From: a virus
Taxonomy: Duplodnaviria; Caudoviricetes
Length of the DNA: 64,000 nucleotides
Reading direction: 5' to 3' (one strand)
Virus record (IMG/VR): IMGVR_UViG_3300027365_000007
Position 1 is the stretch's first letter. Each line of letters begins with the position of its first letter. Made by a program: the position numbers and the translations under genes. Below, piece by piece: positions 1,430 through 61,625 of the stretch. The notes below the pieces were generated by a model that was not told the origin of the DNA, ran no database searches, and worked only from the letters and a program-made list of their open reading frames with translations.

Positions 1430-2242
1430 TCATGTCCATAACGATGTACGAATATTAAGAAGCCGTCTTAACATTTTTTCATCGTCCTTCTCAAACTCAT
1501 CTTCAAGATTATTCATTCGATCTAAACTTTCATGCAACTTCTTGTAATCATCTGGGTGATCTAGTGCAAATCTTGCATCTAGTATCAGCGCCCCTGAATA
1601 CTTTTTATTATATGTAACCCATGGTTCTTGGGACATATCTAATCGCTCTGACTCAGCTACGTCTTCCCTTTCATCTAGAATCTCAGTATACCACATATAC
1701 AATGCAAACAGTTCCGTATAAAAATCTTTGTTTTCATCATCATCATTAGTGCGCTCTATGATATGGTGTAAGCCCAGTTCCTTTGAGCGAAAGAATGCTT
1801 CTGCTATACCAAATACATCAAAATTATTATTCAACCATAGTCGCTTTTTGTATGCCTCATACAATGGATGGTCCTTGTCCATTGAAATAAATTCCAACCA
1901 AGCCAACTCTATTTCAACATAATCAACGACTAAAGCAAACATGGCATGTAGCATTCTCACATCTGCATCATAGTATCCGGGCGGTAAGGTAGTTTTCACA
2001 ACATGCAAACGTTGTGTTGTACGATACCTAACCCAATCCTTGACCTTATCTAAATGAGGTTTTATACATGCATGATAGTCCCTAGCAAAAAACATATCAT
2101 AAAGGTACGATATTCTATTTGGAATTATACGAAATAGTACAAACCTGAATTTATGATCCTTTTTATATTCATGCAAACTACTGTACTCGGGCTCAAGTTT
2201 CCTTAAGCCCTTAAGTACTAGCTTACTAATTTCTTCAATCAT
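1430..2242 (-). CDS. Hypothetical phage protein
   Basis: 270-aa ORF, coupled to the Thg1 gene by overlap. Confidence 0.7.
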   Translation of the reverse strand: MIEEISKLVLKGLRKLEPEYSSLHEYKKDHKFRFVLFRIIPNRISYLYDMFFARDYHACIKPHLDKVKDWVRYRTTQRLHVVKTTLPPGYYDADVRMLHAMFALVVDYVEIELAWLEFISMDKDHPLYEAYKKRLWLNNNFDVFGIAEAFFRSKELGLHHIIERTNDDDENKDFYTELFALYMWYTEILDEREDVAESERLDMSQEPWVTYNKKYSGALILDARFALDHPDDYKKLHESLDRMNNLEDEFEKDDEKMLRRLLNIRTSLWT

Positions 2243-3023
2243 GATCTACCAGCCTACTACCTAACGAAAGATTTTTGATTTCATTAAACGACAAGTTTTT
2301 AAATGCATTACATTTAATCTTGTGTCGTGTATATTCACGCGATTGAGGCTTTTTACCATCTGGGATTTTTGCCCAAATATGATCAGGAATCACATTATTT
2401 TCAAGACGCTTATATACATAAACACCATATTTGAAATCGTCTGGAAATTCATCCCAAACAACAGCACACTGATCTTCGAGCATTTCGATAACATCTTCCC
2501 GACTTCTCTTATGCATCTGCTTTTTATTCAGGAAGTGATGACCGACCATAGATACCGAGTTACGAACACAATCATGCTGACGCCATAGAATAGAATTAAC
2601 GGCTTCGTTATAATCAGGGACGTTGAATACTCTGGCATCAAAGTGTGGTACACTTTTTGAAACATGCTCTGGCCATACTTTCATAGCTTCAATAACAAAT
2701 TTCGATGTAGCTGTCGCTGATAAAACACTGACCAACTTCTGAATCTTAGCATCGAAAAATAGGTCTGGCTTAGGCACAATAATTGAAATCTCATCACTTT
2801 GGGTATATGCCAAGCATCCATCACATTCCTTCATGACATGTTCGGCGGTTCGGGTCATAACATGTCTAAAGTCTTCGTCATACGGACGTTTAAAGTTTCG
2901 GGTGAAGTTACTAAACCCGCGTCCATCTAAACGAACAATGACTGGAAGATTTTTATCGAGCCGTTGTTCAGTTTGCTTCTTTTCGTACATTTTCATACGC
3001 TTAGCAAAATCGGTATTGTCCAT
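2235..3023 (-). CDS. thg1: Thg1-like 3'-5' polymerase / tRNA(His) guanylyltransferase
   Basis: VRLDGRGFSNFT, AYTQSDEISI, FDARVFNVP and WRQHDCVRNSVS motifs; catalytic Asp residues intact. Confidence 0.92.
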   Translation of the reverse strand: MDNTDFAKRMKMYEKKQTEQRLDKNLPVIVRLDGRGFSNFTRNFKRPYDEDFRHVMTRTAEHVMKECDGCLAYTQSDEISIIVPKPDLFFDAKIQKLVSVLSATATSKFVIEAMKVWPEHVSKSVPHFDARVFNVPDYNEAVNSILWRQHDCVRNSVSMVGHHFLNKKQMHKRSREDVIEMLEDQCAVVWDEFPDDFKYGVYVYKRLENNVIPDHIWAKIPDGKKPQSREYTRHKIKCNAFKNLSFNEIKNLSLGSRLVDHD

Positions 3024-3047
3024 TGCACTGTCCTTTTATATTATTCA

Positions 3048-3272
3048 TTAACCAAAGTTGATGTATGATGCTCGACTTAGGATATAGTCAATGACACCTT
3101 CATTGACGTATGCAAGAACACGTTCACCGTTAATGGTCTTGCACTGATAGTTCTCGTTGTCGATGACATGAACAACATTCTCGGCAAATTCAACTTCAAT
3201 TCTTTTACCATGCAGGCTTCCACCTACAACATTAACTTCATCATTAGACACTACAGTTTTAATATCTGACAT
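3048..3272 (-). CDS. Hypothetical protein
   Basis: ORF track; co-oriented in the operon. Confidence 0.55.
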   Translation of the reverse strand: MSDIKTVVSNDEVNVVGGSLHGKRIEVEFAENVVHVIDNENYQCKTINGERVLAYVNEGVIDYILSRASYINFG

Positions 3273-3294
3273 AATGCTTCCTCATTCGTGTTTG

Positions 3295-3327
3295 TTCTAG
3301 TATACCAAAAATCATTCAGAAAGCAAA
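3295..3327 (-). promoter_or_regulatory. Candidate sigma70-type promoter (TTGCTT-N16-TATACT)
   Basis: Minus strand reads TTGCTT tctgaatgatttttgg TATACT upstream of the 3272 gene; coordinates approximate. Confidence 0.35.
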
Positions 3328-4376
3328 TCTTTAATGATATAATAATGATCTTCGAAAAACTGATCTCTCATTTTATCGATTTCGAACAGAGAAAACCACC
3401 CTGCATGTTCTTTTTGACTCTTCGTCTTACGTACTTTTGGGAAACCTTTTAGGCTTGTAACGTTATCTAGTTCAATAAGACCTGCATTAGTAATGATGCG
3501 TCCACGTAGTGATCGATTGGGATCATCATAGGTCTTTACCTTACGAACGTTTGAGCTGAGAATGTTTTCATGGACTTGAATATTGGTATCTTTTTTCAAG
3601 TTCTTAACGACACCTTCCTCAATGGTATCAACTTGGGCAAGAAAGCCCCCCGGCAAACAATAAAGGTCTTTCCCAACCGCGCCTTTTCTTTTAACAACCA
3701 ATACATAGCCTTTATAATAAACGACAGCATCTGTCGTTACGAACGTAGGTGGGAAAGGCGCAGCCTCCCATTGTGACTTTTGAAACATGACCGCTTCATA
3801 TTCTTCCTTGAGAGTTTCAAAGTCATAGCCTTTACGGTATGTATCATACCACTCTCCTTTTCTAAACTTATCATAAAGACTAGTCATATTGGGTGCGATA
3901 TGCAAAGAAATGTCTTCCATACCATAGAAGTCATGATAAAGCTCCTGACTGATGCCCATGTCTACCTTATTCACATTAAACATAGGTTCAGGGAAAATGT
4001 TTTCATAACGATGGTGTGATTCATTCGAAACATACACATTAAGCTCAAGATCTTTACGGTTCACACACAAGGTATTAAAGCGTTCATTCAATTTCGAATG
4101 AATATCTGTAATCCATTGTCGCTTATTGACAGGATTATCATTCAGAACACCGATGGAAAAATCTTCTTTTTCCAATCCACCATTGACTTCGATGGTTTTT
4201 AGAATATTATTTGCACGATCATTCTTGTCAAAGGGCATTGTATAGTCTTTAGAACGATCAGCCGAACATACGAAGATTAGTACGTGGTCGTTCTCATCCG
4301 ACGCCTTCCTAAGAACGTGGAAGATTTCGCGTGTTACAAAAGAGAACTTACTTACTACTATTCCGATCTTAGCCAT
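3312..4376 (-). CDS. NadM-Nudix (NMN adenylyltransferase/ADP-ribose pyrophosphatase) homolog with degenerate active sites
   Basis: Architecture and motifs PFPPTFVTTDAVV, GLYCLPGGF-like, DDPNRSLRGRIIT and FEDHYYII match the family. The HxGH motif and the Nudix box RExxEE are replaced. Confidence 0.85.
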   Translation of the reverse strand: MAKIGIVVSKFSFVTREIFHVLRKASDENDHVLIFVCSADRSKDYTMPFDKNDRANNILKTIEVNGGLEKEDFSIGVLNDNPVNKRQWITDIHSKLNERFNTLCVNRKDLELNVYVSNESHHRYENIFPEPMFNVNKVDMGISQELYHDFYGMEDISLHIAPNMTSLYDKFRKGEWYDTYRKGYDFETLKEEYEAVMFQKSQWEAAPFPPTFVTTDAVVYYKGYVLVVKRKGAVGKDLYCLPGGFLAQVDTIEEGVVKNLKKDTNIQVHENILSSNVRKVKTYDDPNRSLRGRIITNAGLIELDNVTSLKGFPKVRKTKSQKEHAGWFSLFEIDKMRDQFFEDHYYIIKDLLSE

Positions 4377-4597
4377 TTATCACTATCCCTTTTCATTATT
4401 AATCTTTCTTTACGATATAAATATACTACCACAGCCACATAGCATAATGCAACTATAATATGAATAAATGGGAGTTTTGATAATACAATAGAAAACGCCA
4501 CTTTTGTAGCTATAAAAGCGGTACTGTATAATGCTATGATGTAAAATGCGCCTATAAAGGCGCATATCAGAAAAGTCTCAATCTTTTTGTTCATCAA
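4358..4597 (-). CDS. Small membrane protein (two predicted TM segments)
   Basis: Hydrophobic stretches in the ORF translation. Confidence 0.5.
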   Translation of the reverse strand: MMNKKIETFLICAFIGAFYIIALYSTAFIATKVAFSIVLSKLPFIHIIVALCYVAVVVYLYRKERLIMKRDSDKWLRSE

Positions 4598-4617
4598 CTG
4601 TTAATCTCACAAGGTTG

Positions 4618-5118
4618 TCATGGATACTTTTTAAAAATATTCCTAACAATATCAATATTCATAAAATATGTTCTATTAAATTTATCAAAAATTCTGTTTA
4701 AGAAACTGGGATGTATGCAATCACGAAATACATGAAGCTGTAATATTTTACTATCTTTATATGTTTCATCTATATTAAAGCTGTTTTTCAGACCCATATT
4801 CATGTAAAATATAAACGTTTTTGTGGGTATTACATCATTGTTATCCCATATAGATGTTGTACTTACACCATCATTGCATGGTAGGTTCATACTGATAATA
4901 AAACTACATGTTTCGCACACCCCTCCATTATACTTCATCTCATAATTCATGATAGAGGCTAAGGACCGCTCATCATTTAGAACAATACCATTCTCAATCA
5001 TATAGTGTTTGAAATCATACGATTGGACATCCTTCATATAGTGGACTAAGGACGTTATGATATCAATTTCATTTTCTTCAGATGTATAGGGGTAAACGAC
5101 AATAGACTTACTCTTCAT
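4618..5118 (-). CDS. Hypothetical protein
   Basis: ORF track; 4-nt overlap with the upstream gene. Confidence 0.6.
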   Translation of the reverse strand: MKSKSIVVYPYTSEENEIDIITSLVHYMKDVQSYDFKHYMIENGIVLNDERSLASIMNYEMKYNGGVCETCSFIISMNLPCNDGVSTTSIWDNNDVIPTKTFIFYMNMGLKNSFNIDETYKDSKILQLHVFRDCIHPSFLNRIFDKFNRTYFMNIDIVRNIFKKYP

Positions 5119-5579
5119 AGATACAGTCGATAACAGAATATTGGTAATTTTATATTCTTATTTATCACCGTATCGACAATTGTTGCACTAGAAAGCATAC
5201 TGAAGTTATTCAGCAACAAAGCGTCATCTACGTTAGTTGTTATAAGATACGTATATCCACGCACGATAGTAATTAACTTTTCTTTCTTATCCAACACGTG
5301 TAGTTTATCGTAATCTACTTCTTTGTCGTTTAACCACTTTTTTACTAATTCACCATCAGGATCACTATTCGATCTTCTAGAATAGATATCTATTGTGTAA
5401 CCACGCTGTCTAAGCATATGTATCATAACCAACATATAAGCATTGATTTTTAGCCTAGACATACACCACTGATCCATCGCACCAACGGATATGGGATTGA
5501 TGCGATGTTTGTTAATCTTTTTGAGAGTACCAAAAGTGTCTGCTATGGTATTATCAAATTCAAATAATGCTACTGGCAT
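5115..5579 (-). CDS. HAD-fold nucleotidase-like protein, degenerate (start re-called at 5579)
   Basis: MPVALFEFDNTIADT resembles motif I DxDxT with D>E; YSRR matches motif II. ATG 5579 follows the DUF3307 stop directly. Confidence 0.55.
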   Translation of the reverse strand: MPVALFEFDNTIADTFGTLKKINKHRINPISVGAMDQWCMSRLKINAYMLVMIHMLRQRGYTIDIYSRRSNSDPDGELVKKWLNDKEVDYDKLHVLDKKEKLITIVRGYTYLITTNVDDALLLNNFSMLSSATIVDTVINKNIKLPIFCYRLYL

Positions 5580-5581
5580 AC

Positions 5582-5965
5582 TTAAACAAAGACAATACAG
5601 GCTATGATAGCATAGTGTGTCAGATGATGTACGGACTGGTCCAGTCCAAGCGACCACCAAAAGTACTTATTTTTAATATCGAAACGTCCCAACAGGTCTG
5701 GGCTGGCTTTAACCCTATCCATGATAGAATGAATTACAAAATCAAAAGCCGCCAATGCCAATGATAGAACGAACGTTTGAGTAAATGCTAACGAAATAAT
5801 AAAGGTGGCAACTGAATGTACCGCTGTGTGAGCAAATAACGGTTTCATCCATCCTACTTTTTTGAATTTTCCAAGCATATATTTTCCCTGTAGTGGAAAG
5901 TCACACAGAAAATGCTTAACTTGGAAAATGACTAGCAATACGAAAATACTAACAATCGGGTCCAT
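5582..5965 (-). CDS. DUF3307-like membrane protein
   Basis: HFLCDFPLQ, HTAVH, HSIMD and GLDQSVHH motifs within hydrophobic helices. Confidence 0.8.
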   Translation of the reverse strand: MDPIVSIFVLLVIFQVKHFLCDFPLQGKYMLGKFKKVGWMKPLFAHTAVHSVATFIISLAFTQTFVLSLALAAFDFVIHSIMDRVKASPDLLGRFDIKNKYFWWSLGLDQSVHHLTHYAIIACIVFV

Positions 5966-6125
5966 TCTTATCTCCTGAATTATTTAATGTAATTTGTTCT
6001 TTATACAGGTGTGGTAATTCTACACCATGATCGATACCACTACAATAGGTCTGATTGTCAAAATGCCAATTGCGATAGTTGTAATACTCGACACTTTGAT
6101 TATTTGTTAGATTCTTATCTTCCAT
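5949..6125 (-). CDS. Small hypothetical protein (58 aa; below the track cutoff)
   Basis: Hand translation MEDKNLTNNQ...; fills the gap between co-oriented genes; no clear SD. Confidence 0.3.
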   Translation of the reverse strand: MEDKNLTNNQSVEYYNYRNWHFDNQTYCSGIDHGVELPHLYKEQITLNNSGDKNGPDC

Positions 6126-6126
6126 A

Positions 6127-6483
6127 CTACTTTAGAATTTCATTATTGATTAATGTGAGGCGAATCTTATACCGATCCCAAAAAATATGCTTAGCATTGA
6201 GAATATACTTTACGGCATTCGTATTTGATGAATGAACGTATATAACCTTAAGCTTACTAAGATCAATATCATTCCAGTAAAGGCGCTCTTCAATCCAATT
6301 GAAAATGTCTTTACCTTCAACTTCTTCACCCAAGTCATTGTCAAGACTCAATACTTCAAATTTATTGGAAGACAAGTGCTTAAAGGCTTCTTCAGAAGTC
6401 TTTGCCCACACCCAATCACCTTTTACATAATCATTGGGATCTCTTAGGTCATCGACCCATAGTTGCAATGACATAACTTTCAC
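6127..6483 (-). CDS. Cyclic-phosphate-processing receiver (REC-like) domain protein
   Basis: LWVDDLRDP, LSLDNDLGE, GKDIFNWIEE and VHSSN motifs. Confidence 0.8.
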   Translation of the reverse strand: MKVMSLQLWVDDLRDPNDYVKGDWVWAKTSEEAFKHLSSNKFEVLSLDNDLGEEVEGKDIFNWIEERLYWNDIDLSKLKVIYVHSSNTNAVKYILNAKHIFWDRYKIRLTLINNEILK

Positions 6484-6508
6484 TCCTACGTGTTATACAA
6501 TTACGTGA

Positions 6509-6649
6509 TTACTCATCGTCTTCTTTATCGTCATCATCATTTAAGATTCGGGCATCATCTTCAGCAAGTTCATCTTCATGCCACATATCATAAATATCTT
6601 GTGTTTTGGTGACGACTTCGTGTTCAGTCTCTCTTTCTTTACCATCCAT
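6509..6649 (-). CDS. Small acidic protein (46 aa; not in track)
   Basis: GGAGG at 6661-6657, ATG 6649; MDGKERETEHEVV...DDKEDDE*. Confidence 0.5.
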   Translation of the reverse strand: MDGKERETEHEVVTKTQDIYDMWHEDELAEDDARILNDDDDKEDDE

Positions 6650-6749
6650 AATGATGCCTCCGAATAATTTAGACCATTACTGATCATACCAAGACTTGAC
6701 GCATTTGTCGAGTCAAAGATAAATATATTTATCAAGGAGATTATATTAT

Positions 6750-7094
6750 ATGAAAACTGGTGACATTCTACCACAGAAAGAACAGATAGGAAAAGTAGTT
6801 TCCTATATTATTAAAAATCTACAAGATGGACAAACAATACTGGATGGTGTTGAGATAAAAAACAAGCATGATTATGATTTCATAAGCGATGCGTTAATTG
6901 TAACTATTGATAAAAATATAGAACCACCAGCCAACTCTGAATATAAAGTAGATGAATTCTGGGGTAACCAAATACGAATAGATATAGCTGCAAAAGGTTT
7001 GGATAAAAAGGAAATACGCAATATCTTAAAGAAAGCATTTGATGAGTATATTGATGTTTTCAATCGAAAAACACATAAGTATGACACACTATAA
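6750..7094 (+). CDS. Hypothetical protein
   Basis: 114-aa ORF followed by a terminator hairpin. Confidence 0.6.
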   Translation: MKTGDILPQKEQIGKVVSYIIKNLQDGQTILDGVEIKNKHDYDFISDALIVTIDKNIEPPANSEYKVDEFWGNQIRIDIAAKGLDKKEIRNILKKAFDEYIDVFNRKTHKYDTL

Positions 7095-7098
7095 TTAA

Positions 7099-7120
7099 AA
7101 AATCCCCCGTAGGGGATTTT
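7099..7120. terminator. Bidirectional intrinsic terminator
   Basis: AAAATCCCC-CGTA-GGGGATTTT between convergent genes. Confidence 0.75.
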
Positions 7121-7227
7121 GACATCATAGAACACACTTTGGCAGGCATTAAGTATTCTAATTGTATTTATAACTCGATGTAACACTTTATATAGTCAGT
7201 TTTTATTCATCAAAACAAGTATAGTCA

Positions 7228-7470
7228 TTAAGAAGTTCTAAACATAAGTGAATAGGCATTAAAAAAGTCTCTGAATTTATCGTCCAGAGACTTTTTATGT
7301 TTTACCTTCCTGTTGTAAGATTTTCCCTTTCCTTTCTTAGGTTCTTCAACTTTATGTTTGAACATTGGTGAAGTAACCGCTGCGGCGAAATAATTATCTT
7401 TTATTTCACCTCTCCCAAGATCGTGCTTATGCTTGGGAGTATTTTTATGTTTATTTCTTCGTTTAGACAT
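7228..7470 (-). CDS. arfA: Alternative ribosome-rescue factor A
   Basis: GEIKDNYFAAAVTSPMFKHKVEEPKKGKGKSYNRKVKH aligns with E. coli ArfA [37 protein letters not shown] (recalled). AGGAG at 7483-7479 places the start at ATG 7470. Confidence 0.9.
   Translation of the reverse strand: MSKRRNKHKNTPKHKHDLGRGEIKDNYFAAAVTSPMFKHKVEEPKKGKGKSYNRKVKHKKSLDDKFRDFFNAYSLMFRTS
7261..7296 (-). terminator. Intrinsic terminator inside the arfA coding sequence
   Basis: Perfect 12-bp inverted repeat AAAAAGTCTCTG (7262-7273) / CAGAGACTTTTT (7285-7296). On the mRNA a GC-containing stem is followed by six U residues, 10 codons before the stop. Confidence 0.75.
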
Positions 7471-7481
7471 AATATACACTC

Positions 7482-7868
7482 CTATAGTCTCAGTCTTGCT
7501 TTATCGATAAGTTCTATCATTTCTTCATGTGGTATTGTATTTAGGTATTCCTCAGTAGATTCCAGTGTCATCTCGGATTCATAATGTAGTAGTATCAATT
7601 CTCCTGCACAAAAGCGTGTCCGCAATGACATAGCATATACAACTCGGGCATCTTCATCAATTGTTCCACGAGGCATATTATACTTATCTTCCATTTTAGT
7701 AAAATCTTTAGCTAGAAGTTTAAAAATACCATTTAGTTTTTTACGTTGAATATCATCAGCATCTCCATTGCAGTACTCCATGTACTTGATTTTATAAAAT
7801 GAATCAACCTCTACACGCTTATTAGAAAACGTTTTTGGGTGCGAAACAATAACTACATAGGAAGACAT
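7482..7868 (-). CDS. Hypothetical protein
   Basis: ORF track; directly upstream of arfA. Confidence 0.65.
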   Translation of the reverse strand: MSSYVVIVSHPKTFSNKRVEVDSFYKIKYMEYCNGDADDIQRKKLNGIFKLLAKDFTKMEDKYNMPRGTIDEDARVVYAMSLRTRFCAGELILLHYESEMTLESTEEYLNTIPHEEMIELIDKARLRL

Positions 7869-7895
7869 AAATATACCTTTTGAATTTATCTATTA

Positions 7896-7903
7896 TATAA
7901 ATA
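7896..7903 (+). promoter_or_regulatory. T4-type late promoter TATAAATA
   Basis: Exact motif 34 nt upstream of the endolysin start. Confidence 0.7.
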
Positions 7904-7936
7904 CTACCATAACATAATCTTAAAAGGAAATCAACC

Positions 7937-8518
7937 ATGAGAAAGATTTTGAACAAAATATATAATTTTTTCATCCCAGATACACCCATGAAAAAGCCAA
8001 TTGAGCATATATACGGAGAACCAGTCATGAACGTACAGAATATACGCCAAACAGATAAATTATCTGAAAATTTTAAACTGAGTGAATTTACGAAGTCTCA
8101 AACTGCCTCACGAAGAGGTATAAATAACACCCCCAACGATGAACACCTACGGAATATCAAAACCCTAGTTGATAACGTCTTACAGCCTCTTAGAGATGAC
8201 TTAGGCAAGCCTCTGATCATCACGAGCGGGTACCGTTCACCTGCGTTAAACAAGGCTATAGGCGGTTCTGAAGACTCTCAGCACTCTAATGGTGAAGCAG
8301 TTGACATAGAATGCATTGGAATGTCCAATAGAGAACTTGCAAAGTATATTCGTGATAATTTCACATTTGATCAACTTATTTTGGAATTCTATAATCCAGA
8401 TGAAGGTGAAAATTCCGGTTGGGTTCATGTATCTTACGTATCTAGTGATAACCGCAAAGAGGTATTAACAGCATTATCTCAGAACGATGATGTTACTTAT
8501 CAGTATGGTATCTATTGA
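7937..8518 (+). CDS. Peptidase M15 (Zn D,D-/L,D-peptidase), probable endolysin
   Basis: LSENFKLSEF, ITSGYRS, SQHSNGEAVDI (SxHxxxxAxD) and WVHVS motifs; late promoter upstream. Confidence 0.9.
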   Translation: MRKILNKIYNFFIPDTPMKKPIEHIYGEPVMNVQNIRQTDKLSENFKLSEFTKSQTASRRGINNTPNDEHLRNIKTLVDNVLQPLRDDLGKPLIITSGYRSPALNKAIGGSEDSQHSNGEAVDIECIGMSNRELAKYIRDNFTFDQLILEFYNPDEGENSGWVHVSYVSSDNRKEVLTALSQNDDVTYQYGIY

Positions 8519-8937
8519 TAATAACTAGCCCATTCGGCATCTAGGTCAAATGATTCTAATTCCAATTCAGTCATTGCTTCTATTTTTGAAGCAATGACAT
8601 TTTCTACACTAAATGCTTTTTGTACATGTTTGGTCACTGTTGTTGCAATTAAAACCATTTGATTATAGTCCACTGACCGTATCCAACCATTCTGCCCTTT
8701 CCAATCCACGGAGTCGGTAATGCCTGCCTGCAATGCCATCATGGTTGAAGATATTTTAGCAAGAGAACCTTCATCTGTCTTAATGATGGTACCGTTAAAA
8801 TCGACTCCACCTGTTTCGATTTTTTTGCGTAAAGACGACAAACGTTTCAACATTCTTTGATGAGCGGTAGTGATCACTTCTGTACTATCATCGTATATGC
8901 TTATTGAGTGTGTTGTACTTTCAAGTATGTTTTTCAT
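8512..8937 (-). CDS. DUF4376-like tail-fibre-associated protein
   Basis: RKKIETGGVDFNG...TD, VDWK and HVQKAF pattern. Confidence 0.65.
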   Translation of the reverse strand: MKNILESTTHSISIYDDSTEVITTAHQRMLKRLSSLRKKIETGGVDFNGTIIKTDEGSLAKISSTMMALQAGITDSVDWKGQNGWIRSVDYNQMVLIATTVTKHVQKAFSVENVIASKIEAMTELELESFDLDAEWASYYQ

Positions 8938-8938
8938 A

Positions 8939-9391
8939 TTATTCTATAGGCACTAGTGATAAAAATATTATTTCGGAATGGTTGTTGCCACGTTTTTTAT
9001 TTTCATTCGTGGCATAAATTTCAATTTTTTCATTCACAAGATATGGCGGTGTGTTTGCTGATATTTTTCCAATTGCGTTATTATCATAAGAAAAAACGCT
9101 CTTTAAAACATCGCCTGCTAAAGAACTATCGAATACAGTAACATTATCAATGATAATTTTTGTTATTGAAACGCCAACATCACTGGTTTCAATTCCTCCA
9201 AAGTTAAAAGTCCCAGACCCAGATAAAACTAATATAGGCGTATATGTCTCATTTGGAATTGTTACTTGTATAACACCTGCATTTTGTATTTCACTCGTAT
9301 TGTATATGTTAAGTGCATGTACAGGCAATCTTGGAACAGTTATGATACGTTTCAATAAGCTCGATTTTATTTCTTTGTGCTTATTAGCCAT
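8939..9391 (-). CDS. Hypothetical (probable virion) protein
   Basis: ORF track; beta-rich composition; operon context. Confidence 0.55.
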   Translation of the reverse strand: MANKHKEIKSSLLKRIITVPRLPVHALNIYNTSEIQNAGVIQVTIPNETYTPILVLSGSGTFNFGGIETSDVGVSITKIIIDNVTVFDSSLAGDVLKSVFSYDNNAIGKISANTPPYLVNEKIEIYATNENKKRGNNHSEIIFLSLVPIE

Positions 9392-10515: not shown

Positions 10516-10740
10516 ATGAGTCATATTTTTAATGATGAGATACAATATAAACGTACTGAACAAGTAGATTCATTCGGGAGACTTAGAGCTTCTACACCAC
10601 ATACATATTTTGACTCTCCTAATGCATGGAAGGTGTTACCGGGATGTAAATTCAAACTTACTGCCACAAATGTAACAAATGGAAATTGGGACGTGTCGCT
10701 ATCATTTTATATGATTAAAAGAAAAACAGTGAACTATTAA
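10516..10740 (+). CDS. Short protein with DSFGRLRAS motif, possibly an internally deleted structural gene
   Basis: The N-terminal motif normally begins much longer phage proteins (recalled); only 74 aa here. Confidence 0.45.
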   Translation: MSHIFNDEIQYKRTEQVDSFGRLRASTPHTYFDSPNAWKVLPGCKFKLTATNVTNGNWDVSLSFYMIKRKTVNY

Positions 10741-10742
10741 GT

Positions 10743-11222
10743 TCACTGTTTTTGATATGTTATTAAATAGACACCCTGTGTCTTCATTTCTTCAATGTAA
10801 TCGAAACGTTTAACTTCCAAGAAGTGTGCCATTTCCGGCATTTGAAGAAAACGCTTTAGTCTTTTCAGGTCAGTATTATCAACTGATACGAATTTTATTT
10901 CATCTAACCTTGTGTAAAACTTCTCAATCAGGGTAGATACCATCTTTTCCATCTGAGATCGATATTCATATGCATCTGCAACCTGTATGGGATTTAAGAG
11001 TTGTTCAATCGATCCAACAATAATACTGAATACATCTTTCGATTTAGTTGTACTGACTAAAATTCTTCCATCAGTATATAGCATGGCAACAAGATATAAT
11101 CCATCAGACACTTCTGATACTAAGGTGAACATTTTCTTTTCAGGAATATATTTCACCTTGCCATCGTTGAACTTTCCAGCGTTACTACCGTATGATGCCT
11201 CGTAAAGATCTGACTCGCGCAT
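10743..11222 (-). CDS. Hypothetical protein
   Basis: ORF track. Confidence 0.65.
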   Translation of the reverse strand: MRESDLYEASYGSNAGKFNDGKVKYIPEKKMFTLVSEVSDGLYLVAMLYTDGRILVSTTKSKDVFSIIVGSIEQLLNPIQVADAYEYRSQMEKMVSTLIEKFYTRLDEIKFVSVDNTDLKRLKRFLQMPEMAHFLEVKRFDYIEEMKTQGVYLITYQKQ

Positions 11223-27005: not shown

Positions 27006-27082
27006 TATAAATATAATCAGAAGGAGCAATAGTTCCTTTTTAAATAACATACTATATTTCACTAGATTTATAGCTATAAATA
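27006..27082 (+). promoter_or_regulatory. Two tandem late promoters (TATAAATA at 27006-27013 and 27075-27082)
   Basis: Two exact motifs in the intergenic region upstream of a strongly codon-biased structural gene. Confidence 0.7.
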
Positions 27083-45909: not shown

Positions 45910-45986
45910 ATTGTATTCTCCTTAAATCTGTTATATACATTATTATTTATACTTTTCAATAAAAATGGTTTTAATTATCGCAGAAA

Positions 45987-54894: not shown

Positions 54895-54925
54895 AAAAAG
54901 GGATAAGCTTGGCTTATCCCTTTTT
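54895..54925. terminator. Bidirectional-type terminator after clpA
   Basis: AAAAAGGGATAAGC-TTG-GCTTATCCCTTTTT. Confidence 0.85.
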
Positions 54926-60167: not shown

Positions 60168-60197
60168 AAAAAGAGAGGCATATGCCTCTCTTTTTTA
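60168..60197. terminator. Bidirectional terminator
   Basis: AAAAAGAGAGGCA/TGCCTCTCTTTTT inverted repeat between convergent genes. Confidence 0.8.
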
Positions 60198-61625
60198 TAC
60201 TGCCATAGGTGGTCTTTTGGCTTTCATAGGTTCTTTATTAACCTCTAGGCCAACAATATCAATATCTTCCCATTTCAAACCAATGACATCATCAATAGTA
60301 TTAAAATCTTTATTGATAACTAACTCTCCCGGTTTTCCTAGATCACGTTCAACAATTTCCTTTGCAAACTCAAGCTGATTCTCATATATATGAACATCGG
60401 TTAAATCACAAGACATATATCCAACGTTCATGTTCGCCAATTTTGCCATGCATATTAGATACAATGCGTATTGCTGACGTGCAAAGGATTCGCCGAATAC
60501 TACATCCAGACTTCGGTTCATAACTTTTAAATTAAGTGTCATAGAACCATCTTTTTCAGGAATGCATACAAATTGATGTGAATGCCAACAAGGCGTGAGT
60601 GCCATTTCTTTACTCTGCGATGGATTCCAGAAAGTAGTTAACATTCTTCGACTGTAAGGATTGTTAAGCAGGGTGTCACTGGTTTCTATAAGTTGATCGA
60701 CACCTTGGGTGTTTTTTTGTCTAGAAACCAAACGATATCCATTCCGCGTTATATTTTTGTCTATGTTTTTTTCAGACCATAAATCATAAAAGTTTTTTGG
60801 ATCAAAATTCATCTGTTTTGCAAATTTGACCGCATTATCAAATGTGTGAACTTCACCTGTTTCGACATCTTCGACGGTTATAGTATAGTTTTCTGGATGA
60901 TTTTGTGAATCGGTAATCCACATACAGTTTTCTATAGAATATTCAAATCCATTACCAATAATATCCTTATCCAAGACGTATCGGGTATGAGGATTGGCAA
61001 TCTTATCCTTCCAGCCCGGTATTTTTTTCACATCTTCTGAAAACTTCTTAAATTCAAGCCAATCATTACACACAGACACACCTTTTGCACCATATAAATG
61101 ATAACTACTTGAATCTCTGCGATAACAACGATCTATCATTCCCATCCATGTGGACTTTAGTGGATCATGCTCACTACCGTATCCATTTGCAATACCCAAA
61201 TACGTCGCACTAAGCCCTTCTTTTAGTCTTGGTTCAGGTTGAGTTATACTATCGTATTGACCATTAAAATTTCTCCACGCAAACCCATACGCTTTACCCA
61301 TTTCACCCTCACCAAGATAGTTTAGGTTTCGGTTATCTAGAAATTCACGACTAGTATTACCTTTCCAGAAGCCAACGCCTTTATCCTCAAGTAATTTGGT
61401 TTGAGTTTGTCCATGCATAAAGAACCAAAATTCTTCAAATGCAAGCCTTAATGGCGCTGATCTAAAAGTAGAAAACGGAAATTGCTTTCCTACATTCCAA
61501 ACTAGTTTACGGTCAAAGACCTTATAGCATCCAACACCCGTTCTATCAGGTGTTTTAACCCCATTTTCCAAAACATCTTTGATAAGGTTGATGTAACCTT
61601 GCTCATCATAGTATACTACTGACAT
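60195..61625 (-). CDS. thyA: Thymidylate synthase with an in-frame homing-endonuclease insertion
   Basis: PDRTGVG, EEFWF, YGFAWR, GVDQL, RRM...WNP, ALTPC, RSLDV and DVHIYENQ motifs; ~180-aa insert between YGFAWRNFNG and GVDQL. Confidence 0.9.
   Translation of the reverse strand: MSVVYYDEQGYINLIKDVLENGVKTPDRTGVGCYKVFDRKLVWNVGKQFPFSTFRSAPLRLAFEEFWFFMHGQTQTKLLEDKGVGFWKGNTSREFLDNRNLNYLGEGEMGKAYGFAWRNFNGQYDSITQPEPRLKEGLSATYLGIANGYGSEHDPLKSTWMGMIDRCYRRDSSSYHLYGAKGVSVCNDWLEFKKFSEDVKKIPGWKDKIANPHTRYVLDKDIIGNGFEYSIENCMWITDSQNHPENYTITVEDVETGEVHTFDNAVKFAKQMNFDPKNFYDLWSEKNIDKNITRNGYRLVSRQKNTQGVDQLIETSDTLLNNPYSRRMLTTFWNPSQSKEMALTPCWHSHQFVCIPEKDGSMTLNLKVMNRSLDVVFGESFARQQYALYLICMAKLANMNVGYMSCDLTDVHIYENQLEFAKEIVERDLGKPGELVINKDFNTIDDVIGLKWEDIDIVGLEVNKEPMKAKRPPMAV
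60711..61250 (-). mobile_element. His-Me-finger homing endonuclease domain plus C-terminal HTH, fused inside ThyA (boundaries approximate)
   Basis: W.GMIDRCY...Y.LYG.KGV.VC..W..F..F...LDKD...YS.ENC.W, followed by an IENR1/NUMOD1-like TGEVHTF.NAV.FA segment. Confidence 0.8.

Follow-up and report, generated by a model that had tools for sequence, protein, structure and literature searches.

The ArfA protein, whose synthesis is gated by tmRNA, is regarded as a housekeeping back-up of bacteria. In bacterial arfA, a stem-loop brings about premature termination of transcription or cleavage by RNase III, tmRNA tags the protein made, and its tail is poorly conserved and dispensable (PMC8012679). Schaub et al. 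2012, as cited in PMC8012679, reported terminator-type arfA genes in several proteobacteria. The brfA gene of B. subtilis encodes a small RF2-dependent rescue factor and carries a Rho-independent terminator before its stop codon; synonymous disruption of this terminator lifts the control (PMC6881298).

Comparison of 80 bacterial arfA loci (L017–L096) revealed two layouts. In Shewanella, Rheinheimera and the Vibrio harveyi group, arfA possesses an in-frame hairpin followed by a U-run. In Pseudoalteromonas, Aliivibrio and other Vibrio, the stop codon is enclosed within a long hairpin with a U-run at its end, and stands at a fixed distance of 54–57 nt past the KGKG motif. The gene described here lies in a 64,000-nt stretch of the IMG/VR phage record IMGVR_UViG_3300027365_000007 (the window). 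Judged by its sequence, its layout is that of the Shewanella, Rheinheimera and Vibrio harveyi type, a member of the ArfA family together with the known control element of that family.

The arfA gene and its operon

The window is phage DNA, with genes for an endolysin, tail-fibre proteins, a DnaB-like helicase and a ClpA-like ATPase. Among cultured phages the nearest relative is Salicola phage SCTP-2 (440 kb), whose ClpA-like protein shows 59% amino acid identity; a megablast search of positions 6000–9000 against a phage collection returned no nucleotide match. The whole DNA was found in only one subsurface metagenome run, which may be its source. In a separate part of the window, a 476-aa frame (60195–61625, minus strand) matches thymidylate synthase over residues 269–470 approximately and an HNH endonuclease over residues 150–292 approximately, and is possibly a homing endonuclease that was fused with thyA or inserted into it.

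The product of the arfA ORF (Table 1) matches the Pfam ArfA family PF03889 with a score of 64.5 bits (cut-off 25.5, E = 6e-18) over residues 15–59, covering the model in full (positions 1–44). Residues 18–59 align with residues 6–48 of the E. coli ArfA chains in ribosome complexes (5u4i_w and 7oj0_6; E about 1e-6). The protein is small and basic, with a basic N-terminal extension of 17 residues, and it contains both the conserved N-terminal segment G-x-I-K-D-N...A-L-V/L...P-L/M-F and the basic C-terminal segment KKGKG-SY-RK-KH, the portion that has been modelled on the ribosome. A GGAG ribosome-binding site lies 9 nt 5' of the ATG. By these matches the ORF is a clear ArfA gene.

The gene is the second of a two-gene operon. 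The first, orf128, belongs to a family that is kept in six syntenic phage loci and appears as a gene of approximately 127 aa in the relatives. No match to orf128 was found in Pfam, PHROG or Atlas. Its AlphaFold model, computed from six input sequences, has a pLDDT of 77.7, and no PDB fold matched the model at E ≤ 0.001. The hexamers of the candidate operon promoter line up with TTGACT/TATGGT in one relative (L001) and TTGCTC/TATAAT in another (L010). A promoter of the sigma70 type fits transcription by the host polymerase, an enzyme that reads terminators of the kind described below.

Past the small convergent gene that follows arfA lies a conserved island whose genes stand in the same order in related phages. 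The Thg1 family comprises tRNA-His guanylyltransferases, and cREC_REC denotes a receiver domain for cyclic-phosphate processing; some of the island genes are thus related to RNA or nucleotides, and some may act on RNA.

Table 1 Features of the arfA locus and its surroundings (window positions unless a relative is named).
Feature	Position	Strand	Remarks
arfA ORF	7228..7470	-	80 codons plus TAA; TAA at 7228-7230
Hairpin inside arfA ORF	7262..7296	-	Codons 59-70; 5' arm 7296-7283, loop 7282-7276, 3' arm 7275-7262
U6 run	7261..7266	-	Read as F69-F70; predicted site of transcript 3' ends, which may lie a few bases further on
arfA tail	7228..7260	-	Ten codons plus stop, 3' of hairpin and U6
orf128	7482..7868	-	128 aa; co-transcribed, 5' of arfA; stop 11 nt before arfA ATG
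Candidate sigma70-type promoter of orf128-arfA	7906..7934	-	TTGATT, 17 nt, TATGGT; consensus match alone
Bidirectional terminator	7099..7120	.	Strong; shared with convergent gene 6750-7094 (+); stem covaries among relatives
Conserved non-coding element	7121..7196	-	Between arfA stop and second terminator; contains TATAAATA at 7172-7165
Non-coding element in relatives	L001 3236-3348; L004 2385-2497; L005 545-652; L014 655-742
Non-coding element in relatives	L006 975-1070; L010 2185-2285; L011 5195-5300
TATAAATA copies	7896-7903; 27075-27082; 45944-45951	+; +; -
Conserved island	2235-6483	-	Beside arfA, past convergent gene; same order in relatives
cREC_REC	6127-6483	-	Conserved island
DUF3307	5582-5965	-	Conserved island
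NUDIX-domain protein	3312-4376	-	Conserved island
Thg1-like protein	2235-3023	-	Conserved island

A hairpin and U-run within the arfA frame

Codons K59–F70 of arfA (KKSLDDKFRDFF) encode a hairpin. The preliminary description of this DNA had noted a perfect 12-bp inverted repeat within arfA, and the repeat is indeed present, with arms at 7262–7273 and 7285–7296; as RNA it grows to 14 pairs, including G-U and A-U pairs, closed by a 7-nt loop. Its further statements, that the stem-loop and a U6 run precede the stop by ten codons and lie past the conserved ArfA core, also hold: the hairpin occupies codons 59–70 of 80, ten codons and the TAA follow, and the PF03889 match spans residues 15–59. The hairpin thus lies within the ORF, past the functional core and before the stop, as in the genes known to be under non-stop control. 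The ten tail codons are probably seldom translated.

The 71-nt hairpin region has a folding energy of -21.4 kcal/mol (z = -4.45), and none of 200 shuffled sequences was as stable. Without the A/U flanks, the core stem comprises nine pairs (four of them G-C) with an energy of -10.4 kcal/mol and U6 directly after it, and is only moderately strong; a tightly coupled ribosome could suppress its formation. A stable stem with a U-run immediately 3' is the form of a Rho-independent terminator. A consensus terminator scan of the window does not list the hairpin, probably because the scan extends the stem through the U-run, and a scan that folds the sequence 5' of each T-run does pick it up. The A5-stem-U5 build is the same as that of the phage's intergenic terminators at 10722–10753, 54895–54925 and 60168–60195. 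Across the window, hairpins with a T-run are otherwise almost all intergenic. The arfA hairpin also reads as a hairpin with T5 on the plus strand (+ 7292).

Covariation of the hairpin among related phages

When 1.8 billion representatives were scanned in full with HMMER, 84 ArfA-like matches emerged; a word-indexed protein search had matched just the phage's own ArfA and one relative. The DNA of the seven closest HMMER matches was taken together with a 239-kb IMG/VR contig (L001), giving a set of nine genes: that of the window and those of L001, L004, L005, L006, L008, L010, L011 and L014, the relatives all being metagenomic. Seven of the eight relative loci (eight of nine with the window) share a gene order comprising an M15 endolysin on the opposite strand, the unknown gene of approximately 127 aa, arfA, the small convergent gene, and then the cREC_REC, DUF3307, NUDIX and Thg1-like genes. 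The window and these seven loci therefore represent one phage clade.

Just past the KHK motif, every one of the nine genes has a hairpin with U6–7 directly after it. The stems are 11–16 bp long, the core hairpins have energies of -8 to -16.6 kcal/mol, and the stop codon lies 6–28 codons 3' of the U-run. The preliminary description had looked to conservation and covariation in other phage arfA genes as a check on its reading, and both are seen in the eight relatives. Seven distinct stems occur among the nine genes (for example GUCUCUG, UCACUGA, CUCUCGG, GCGCUUA and GGUUCAU). Within each gene the arms pair at seven of seven core positions, compared with a mean of 4.0 of seven when arms are swapped between genes, and every one of the seven core positions varies in a compensatory manner, with two to four pair types each. 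Between the window and L001, for instance, two synonymous changes (Leu CTG to TTA and Phe TTC to TTT) have turned a G-C pair into A-U. Stem pairs were tabulated from each gene's own fold, as MAFFT alignments of the hairpin misplaced gaps within the arms.

Synonymous recoding seldom restores the fold. When the same peptides were recoded at random with synonymous codons, using the codon usage of this phage, the observed energy was attained in 7, 5, 0, 0 and 22 of 1,000 trials for five lineages. Averaged over gene pairs, the nine proteins are 68% identical in the core, 37% in the portion that the stem encodes, 78% in the Phe-Phe of the U-run and 9% in the tail; the tail past the expected point of truncation is poorly conserved and the position of the stop is variable. 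In L014 the U-run is read in another frame, giving P-F-L, and it is therefore the RNA feature that is conserved, rather than Phe-Phe. On these alignments, the 'FF' motif of ArfA is the footprint of the terminator U-run. Covariation among the homologues indicates that the hairpin is under selection in the phage lineage and does not reflect chance.

The 239-kb contig, which is about 54% complete, was also searched for components of trans-translation. SmpB was not found in it. Three of its four matches to the tmRNA model were checked and all proved to be ordinary tRNA genes, and the stretch of the relative that is roughly syntenic with a tRNA-like RNA upstream of the window gave no tRNA, tmRNA or Rfam match.

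Downstream terminator and conserved non-coding element

The separate terminator that the preliminary description placed at 7099–7120 is real, and is stronger than the arfA hairpin. From its presence it had been argued that the arfA hairpin is not needed to end the operon. This argument is weaker than it was put, because the downstream terminator also serves the convergent gene and closes a separate conserved non-coding element.

That element is near letter-for-letter identical in the closest relatives and recognizable in all eight syntenic loci, next to an arfA tail that is unconserved; in L006, L010 and L011 the arfA frame traverses it. It holds a T4-late-promoter-like TATAAATA and a TGCCTGCC core. 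Covariation support in this region is confined to the terminator stem, and no Rfam family reached or approached the gathering score between 6500 and 8000. The element could be an RNA of about 64 nt driven by a late promoter, or a regulatory DNA site. The window contains 15 copies of TATAAATA, compared with about ten expected, and several of them stand 34–40 nt 5' of start codons, including that of the endolysin gene, a placement that fits T4-like late promoters in this phage.

ArfA-like genes in other phages

Phage-borne ArfA has been annotated before, in Pseudoalteromonas phage J2-1 (MF988720), and gp30 of pelagiphage HTVC027P is reported as an ArfA with high expression at both early and late stages of infection (PMC12753301). 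No hairpin was found in either gene; both have ordinary stops that are overlapped by the next gene, so phages can use ArfA without non-stop control. Salmonella phage Arash gp99c (OQ632216; L102 1123–1347) bears the annotation 'ribosomal protein L2'. It is a homologue of ArfA (GVIKESAVKAIL...KKGKGSYRR) that is extended at the N terminus and has an ordinary stop and, by eye, a weak 5-bp hairpin beside the stop. Pseudomonas phage pf16 (KU873925, about 131776–131919, minus strand; L003 1498–1641) has an unannotated ArfA homologue of 47 aa that overlaps the hypothetical gene pf16_199, annotated on the opposite strand; a 9-bp hairpin (AGCUGAAUG/CAUUCAGCU) that has no U-run holds its TGA stop in the 5' arm.

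A 46-aa ORF on the G+C-rich IMG/VR contig 3300013132_000026 (L002 2941–3081) contains the C-terminal ArfA motif alone (KRGKGSYNRKVKHKK), with a TGA stop in a hairpin loop that is closed by 7 bp (CUUUUCU/AGAAAAG).

The preliminary description put this regulatory logic forward as not known to have been described in a phage. In the searchable full-text literature, no account of an in-frame terminator within a phage arfA was found; the protein itself was already on record in phages. Within that literature, only the retention of the non-stop design in a phage appears to be undescribed.

Proposed mechanism

We consider it likely, by analogy with bacterial arfA and brfA, that the hairpin and U-run at 7296–7261 act as a Rho-independent terminator within the arfA frame and that the full chain from non-stop message to tmRNA control operates during infection. 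Host RNA polymerase would start at the candidate sigma70-type promoter 5' of orf128 and transcribe orf128 and then arfA. The early transcript would mostly end in the U-run, and the arfA message would end at about codon 69–70, without a stop codon; a terminator ahead of the stop yields a non-stop mRNA whatever the purpose of that terminator. Ribosomes would reach the message's 3' end and stall. With spare capacity in the host tmRNA–SmpB system, the nascent ArfA would be tagged for proteolysis. With trans-translation saturated or disabled, untagged ArfA of about 70 aa would be released and would recruit RF2, freeing stalled ribosomes. A possible trigger is a flood of broken mRNAs in the cell, caused by infection or by host RNase defences. 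From the precedent of the bacterial genes we infer the termination in vivo, the ssrA tagging and the physiological trigger.

Alternative explanations

An inverted repeat might be no more than a functionless by-product of the amino acid sequence or of AT-rich composition, the palindrome being short and flanked by A/T in a genome of 34% G+C. This is extremely improbable: the stability is far outside that of shuffled sequences (z = -4.45), the recoding null was attained in 0–2.2% of trials, and the comparative data, in which the hairpin is kept across total turnover of the stem sequence, effectively refute it. The hairpin could instead be a place where RNase III or some other endonuclease processes the RNA, with the full transcript cut in the stem and the resulting non-stop mRNA under tmRNA control. 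Such control is known for RNase III in enterobacterial arfA (PMC8012679), and a hairpin occupies the corresponding position in Salmonella arfA. The Salmonella stem is built differently, however, as a two-part helix of about 20 bp with the U-run within the 3' arm, whereas all nine stems here are 11–16 bp, shorter than an RNase III-type helix of about 20 bp or more, and end in U6–7. RNase III does not require a U-run. The short stems with a terminal U-run, unlike that of Salmonella, favour an intrinsic terminator, and processing by an endonuclease is unlikely here; either a terminator or an RNase III site would give a non-stop arfA message.

A different possibility accepts the terminator and denies its regulatory use. 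The hairpin would be a plain operon terminator, possibly bidirectional and blocking antisense transcription from the convergent gene as well, that chances to overlap a loosely constrained arfA 3' end; the non-stop effect would be tolerated rather than used, and active ArfA would arise mainly by read-through or without tmRNA control. The hairpin with T5 on the plus strand agrees with this, as do the A-run, which is partly set by the lysine-rich KHKK motif, and the ArfA-like genes of J2-1 and HTVC027P, which work with ordinary stops. Yet the frame is open through the terminator in all nine genes (seven stems), although one point mutation could stop it, and the same layout defines bacterial arfA and brfA, in which regulatory use has been experimentally shown. 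We therefore regard a plain terminator as improbable, and prefer the terminator that places ArfA under tmRNA control.

Possible role in infection and significance

If ArfA is controlled in this way, the circuit might serve as a damage-gated counter-defence, switched on only when broken mRNAs exceed the capacity of tmRNA; this suggestion is tentative and, on balance, doubtful. The damage could come from host anti-phage RNases or from the phage's own destruction of host mRNA. If the suggestion were true, ribosomes would stay free for phage proteins, and phage proteins would be spared ssrA tagging. The neighbouring cREC_REC, DUF3307, NUDIX and Thg1-like genes hint, as speculation, that the circuit may be connected with RNA damage.

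Both the ArfA protein and its self-limiting non-stop design are kept under selection throughout a clade of giant phages. This implies that ribosome stalling on broken mRNAs may be a genuine bottleneck in infection and that the phages would gain by tying a rescue factor to the state of host trans-translation. The ordinary-stop genes of J2-1 and HTVC027P and the non-stop type together form a natural experiment in constitutive versus regulated rescue. The practical value is modest, comprising corrections of annotation (the 'ribosomal protein L2' of Arash and the pf16 ORF) and an explanation of the FF motif.

Comparison with known systems

The closest counterparts of the phage gene are the terminator-type bacterial arfA genes, which likewise encode a small basic PF03889 protein and have a hairpin and U-run within the ORF about 50–80 nt past KKGKG, with the stop further 3' and an unconserved tail. 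The phage gene differs from them in that a giant phage carries it, within an early-type operon of two genes next to a conserved island of uncharacterised and RNA-related genes, and in having the 17-aa N-terminal extension and a stem flanked by A5/U5 like the phage's own terminators. The arfA genes of E. coli and Salmonella belong to the same family, and the phage gene would, by analogy, share with them the non-stop mRNA, the tmRNA tagging and the dispensable hydrophobic tail; the Salmonella (enterobacterial) stem is a two-part helix of ~20 bp with the U-run buried in its 3' arm, whereas the phage stem has 14 bp and ends in the U-run. The phage-borne ArfA peptides of J2-1, HTVC027P (gp30), Arash (gp99c) and pf16 are likewise PF03889-like, but none of their genes has the in-frame terminator found in the window. 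In brfA, as presumably in the phage gene, a Rho-independent terminator precedes the stop of a small RF2-dependent rescue factor, but BrfA belongs to an unrelated protein family and is encoded on the chromosome of a Gram-positive host.
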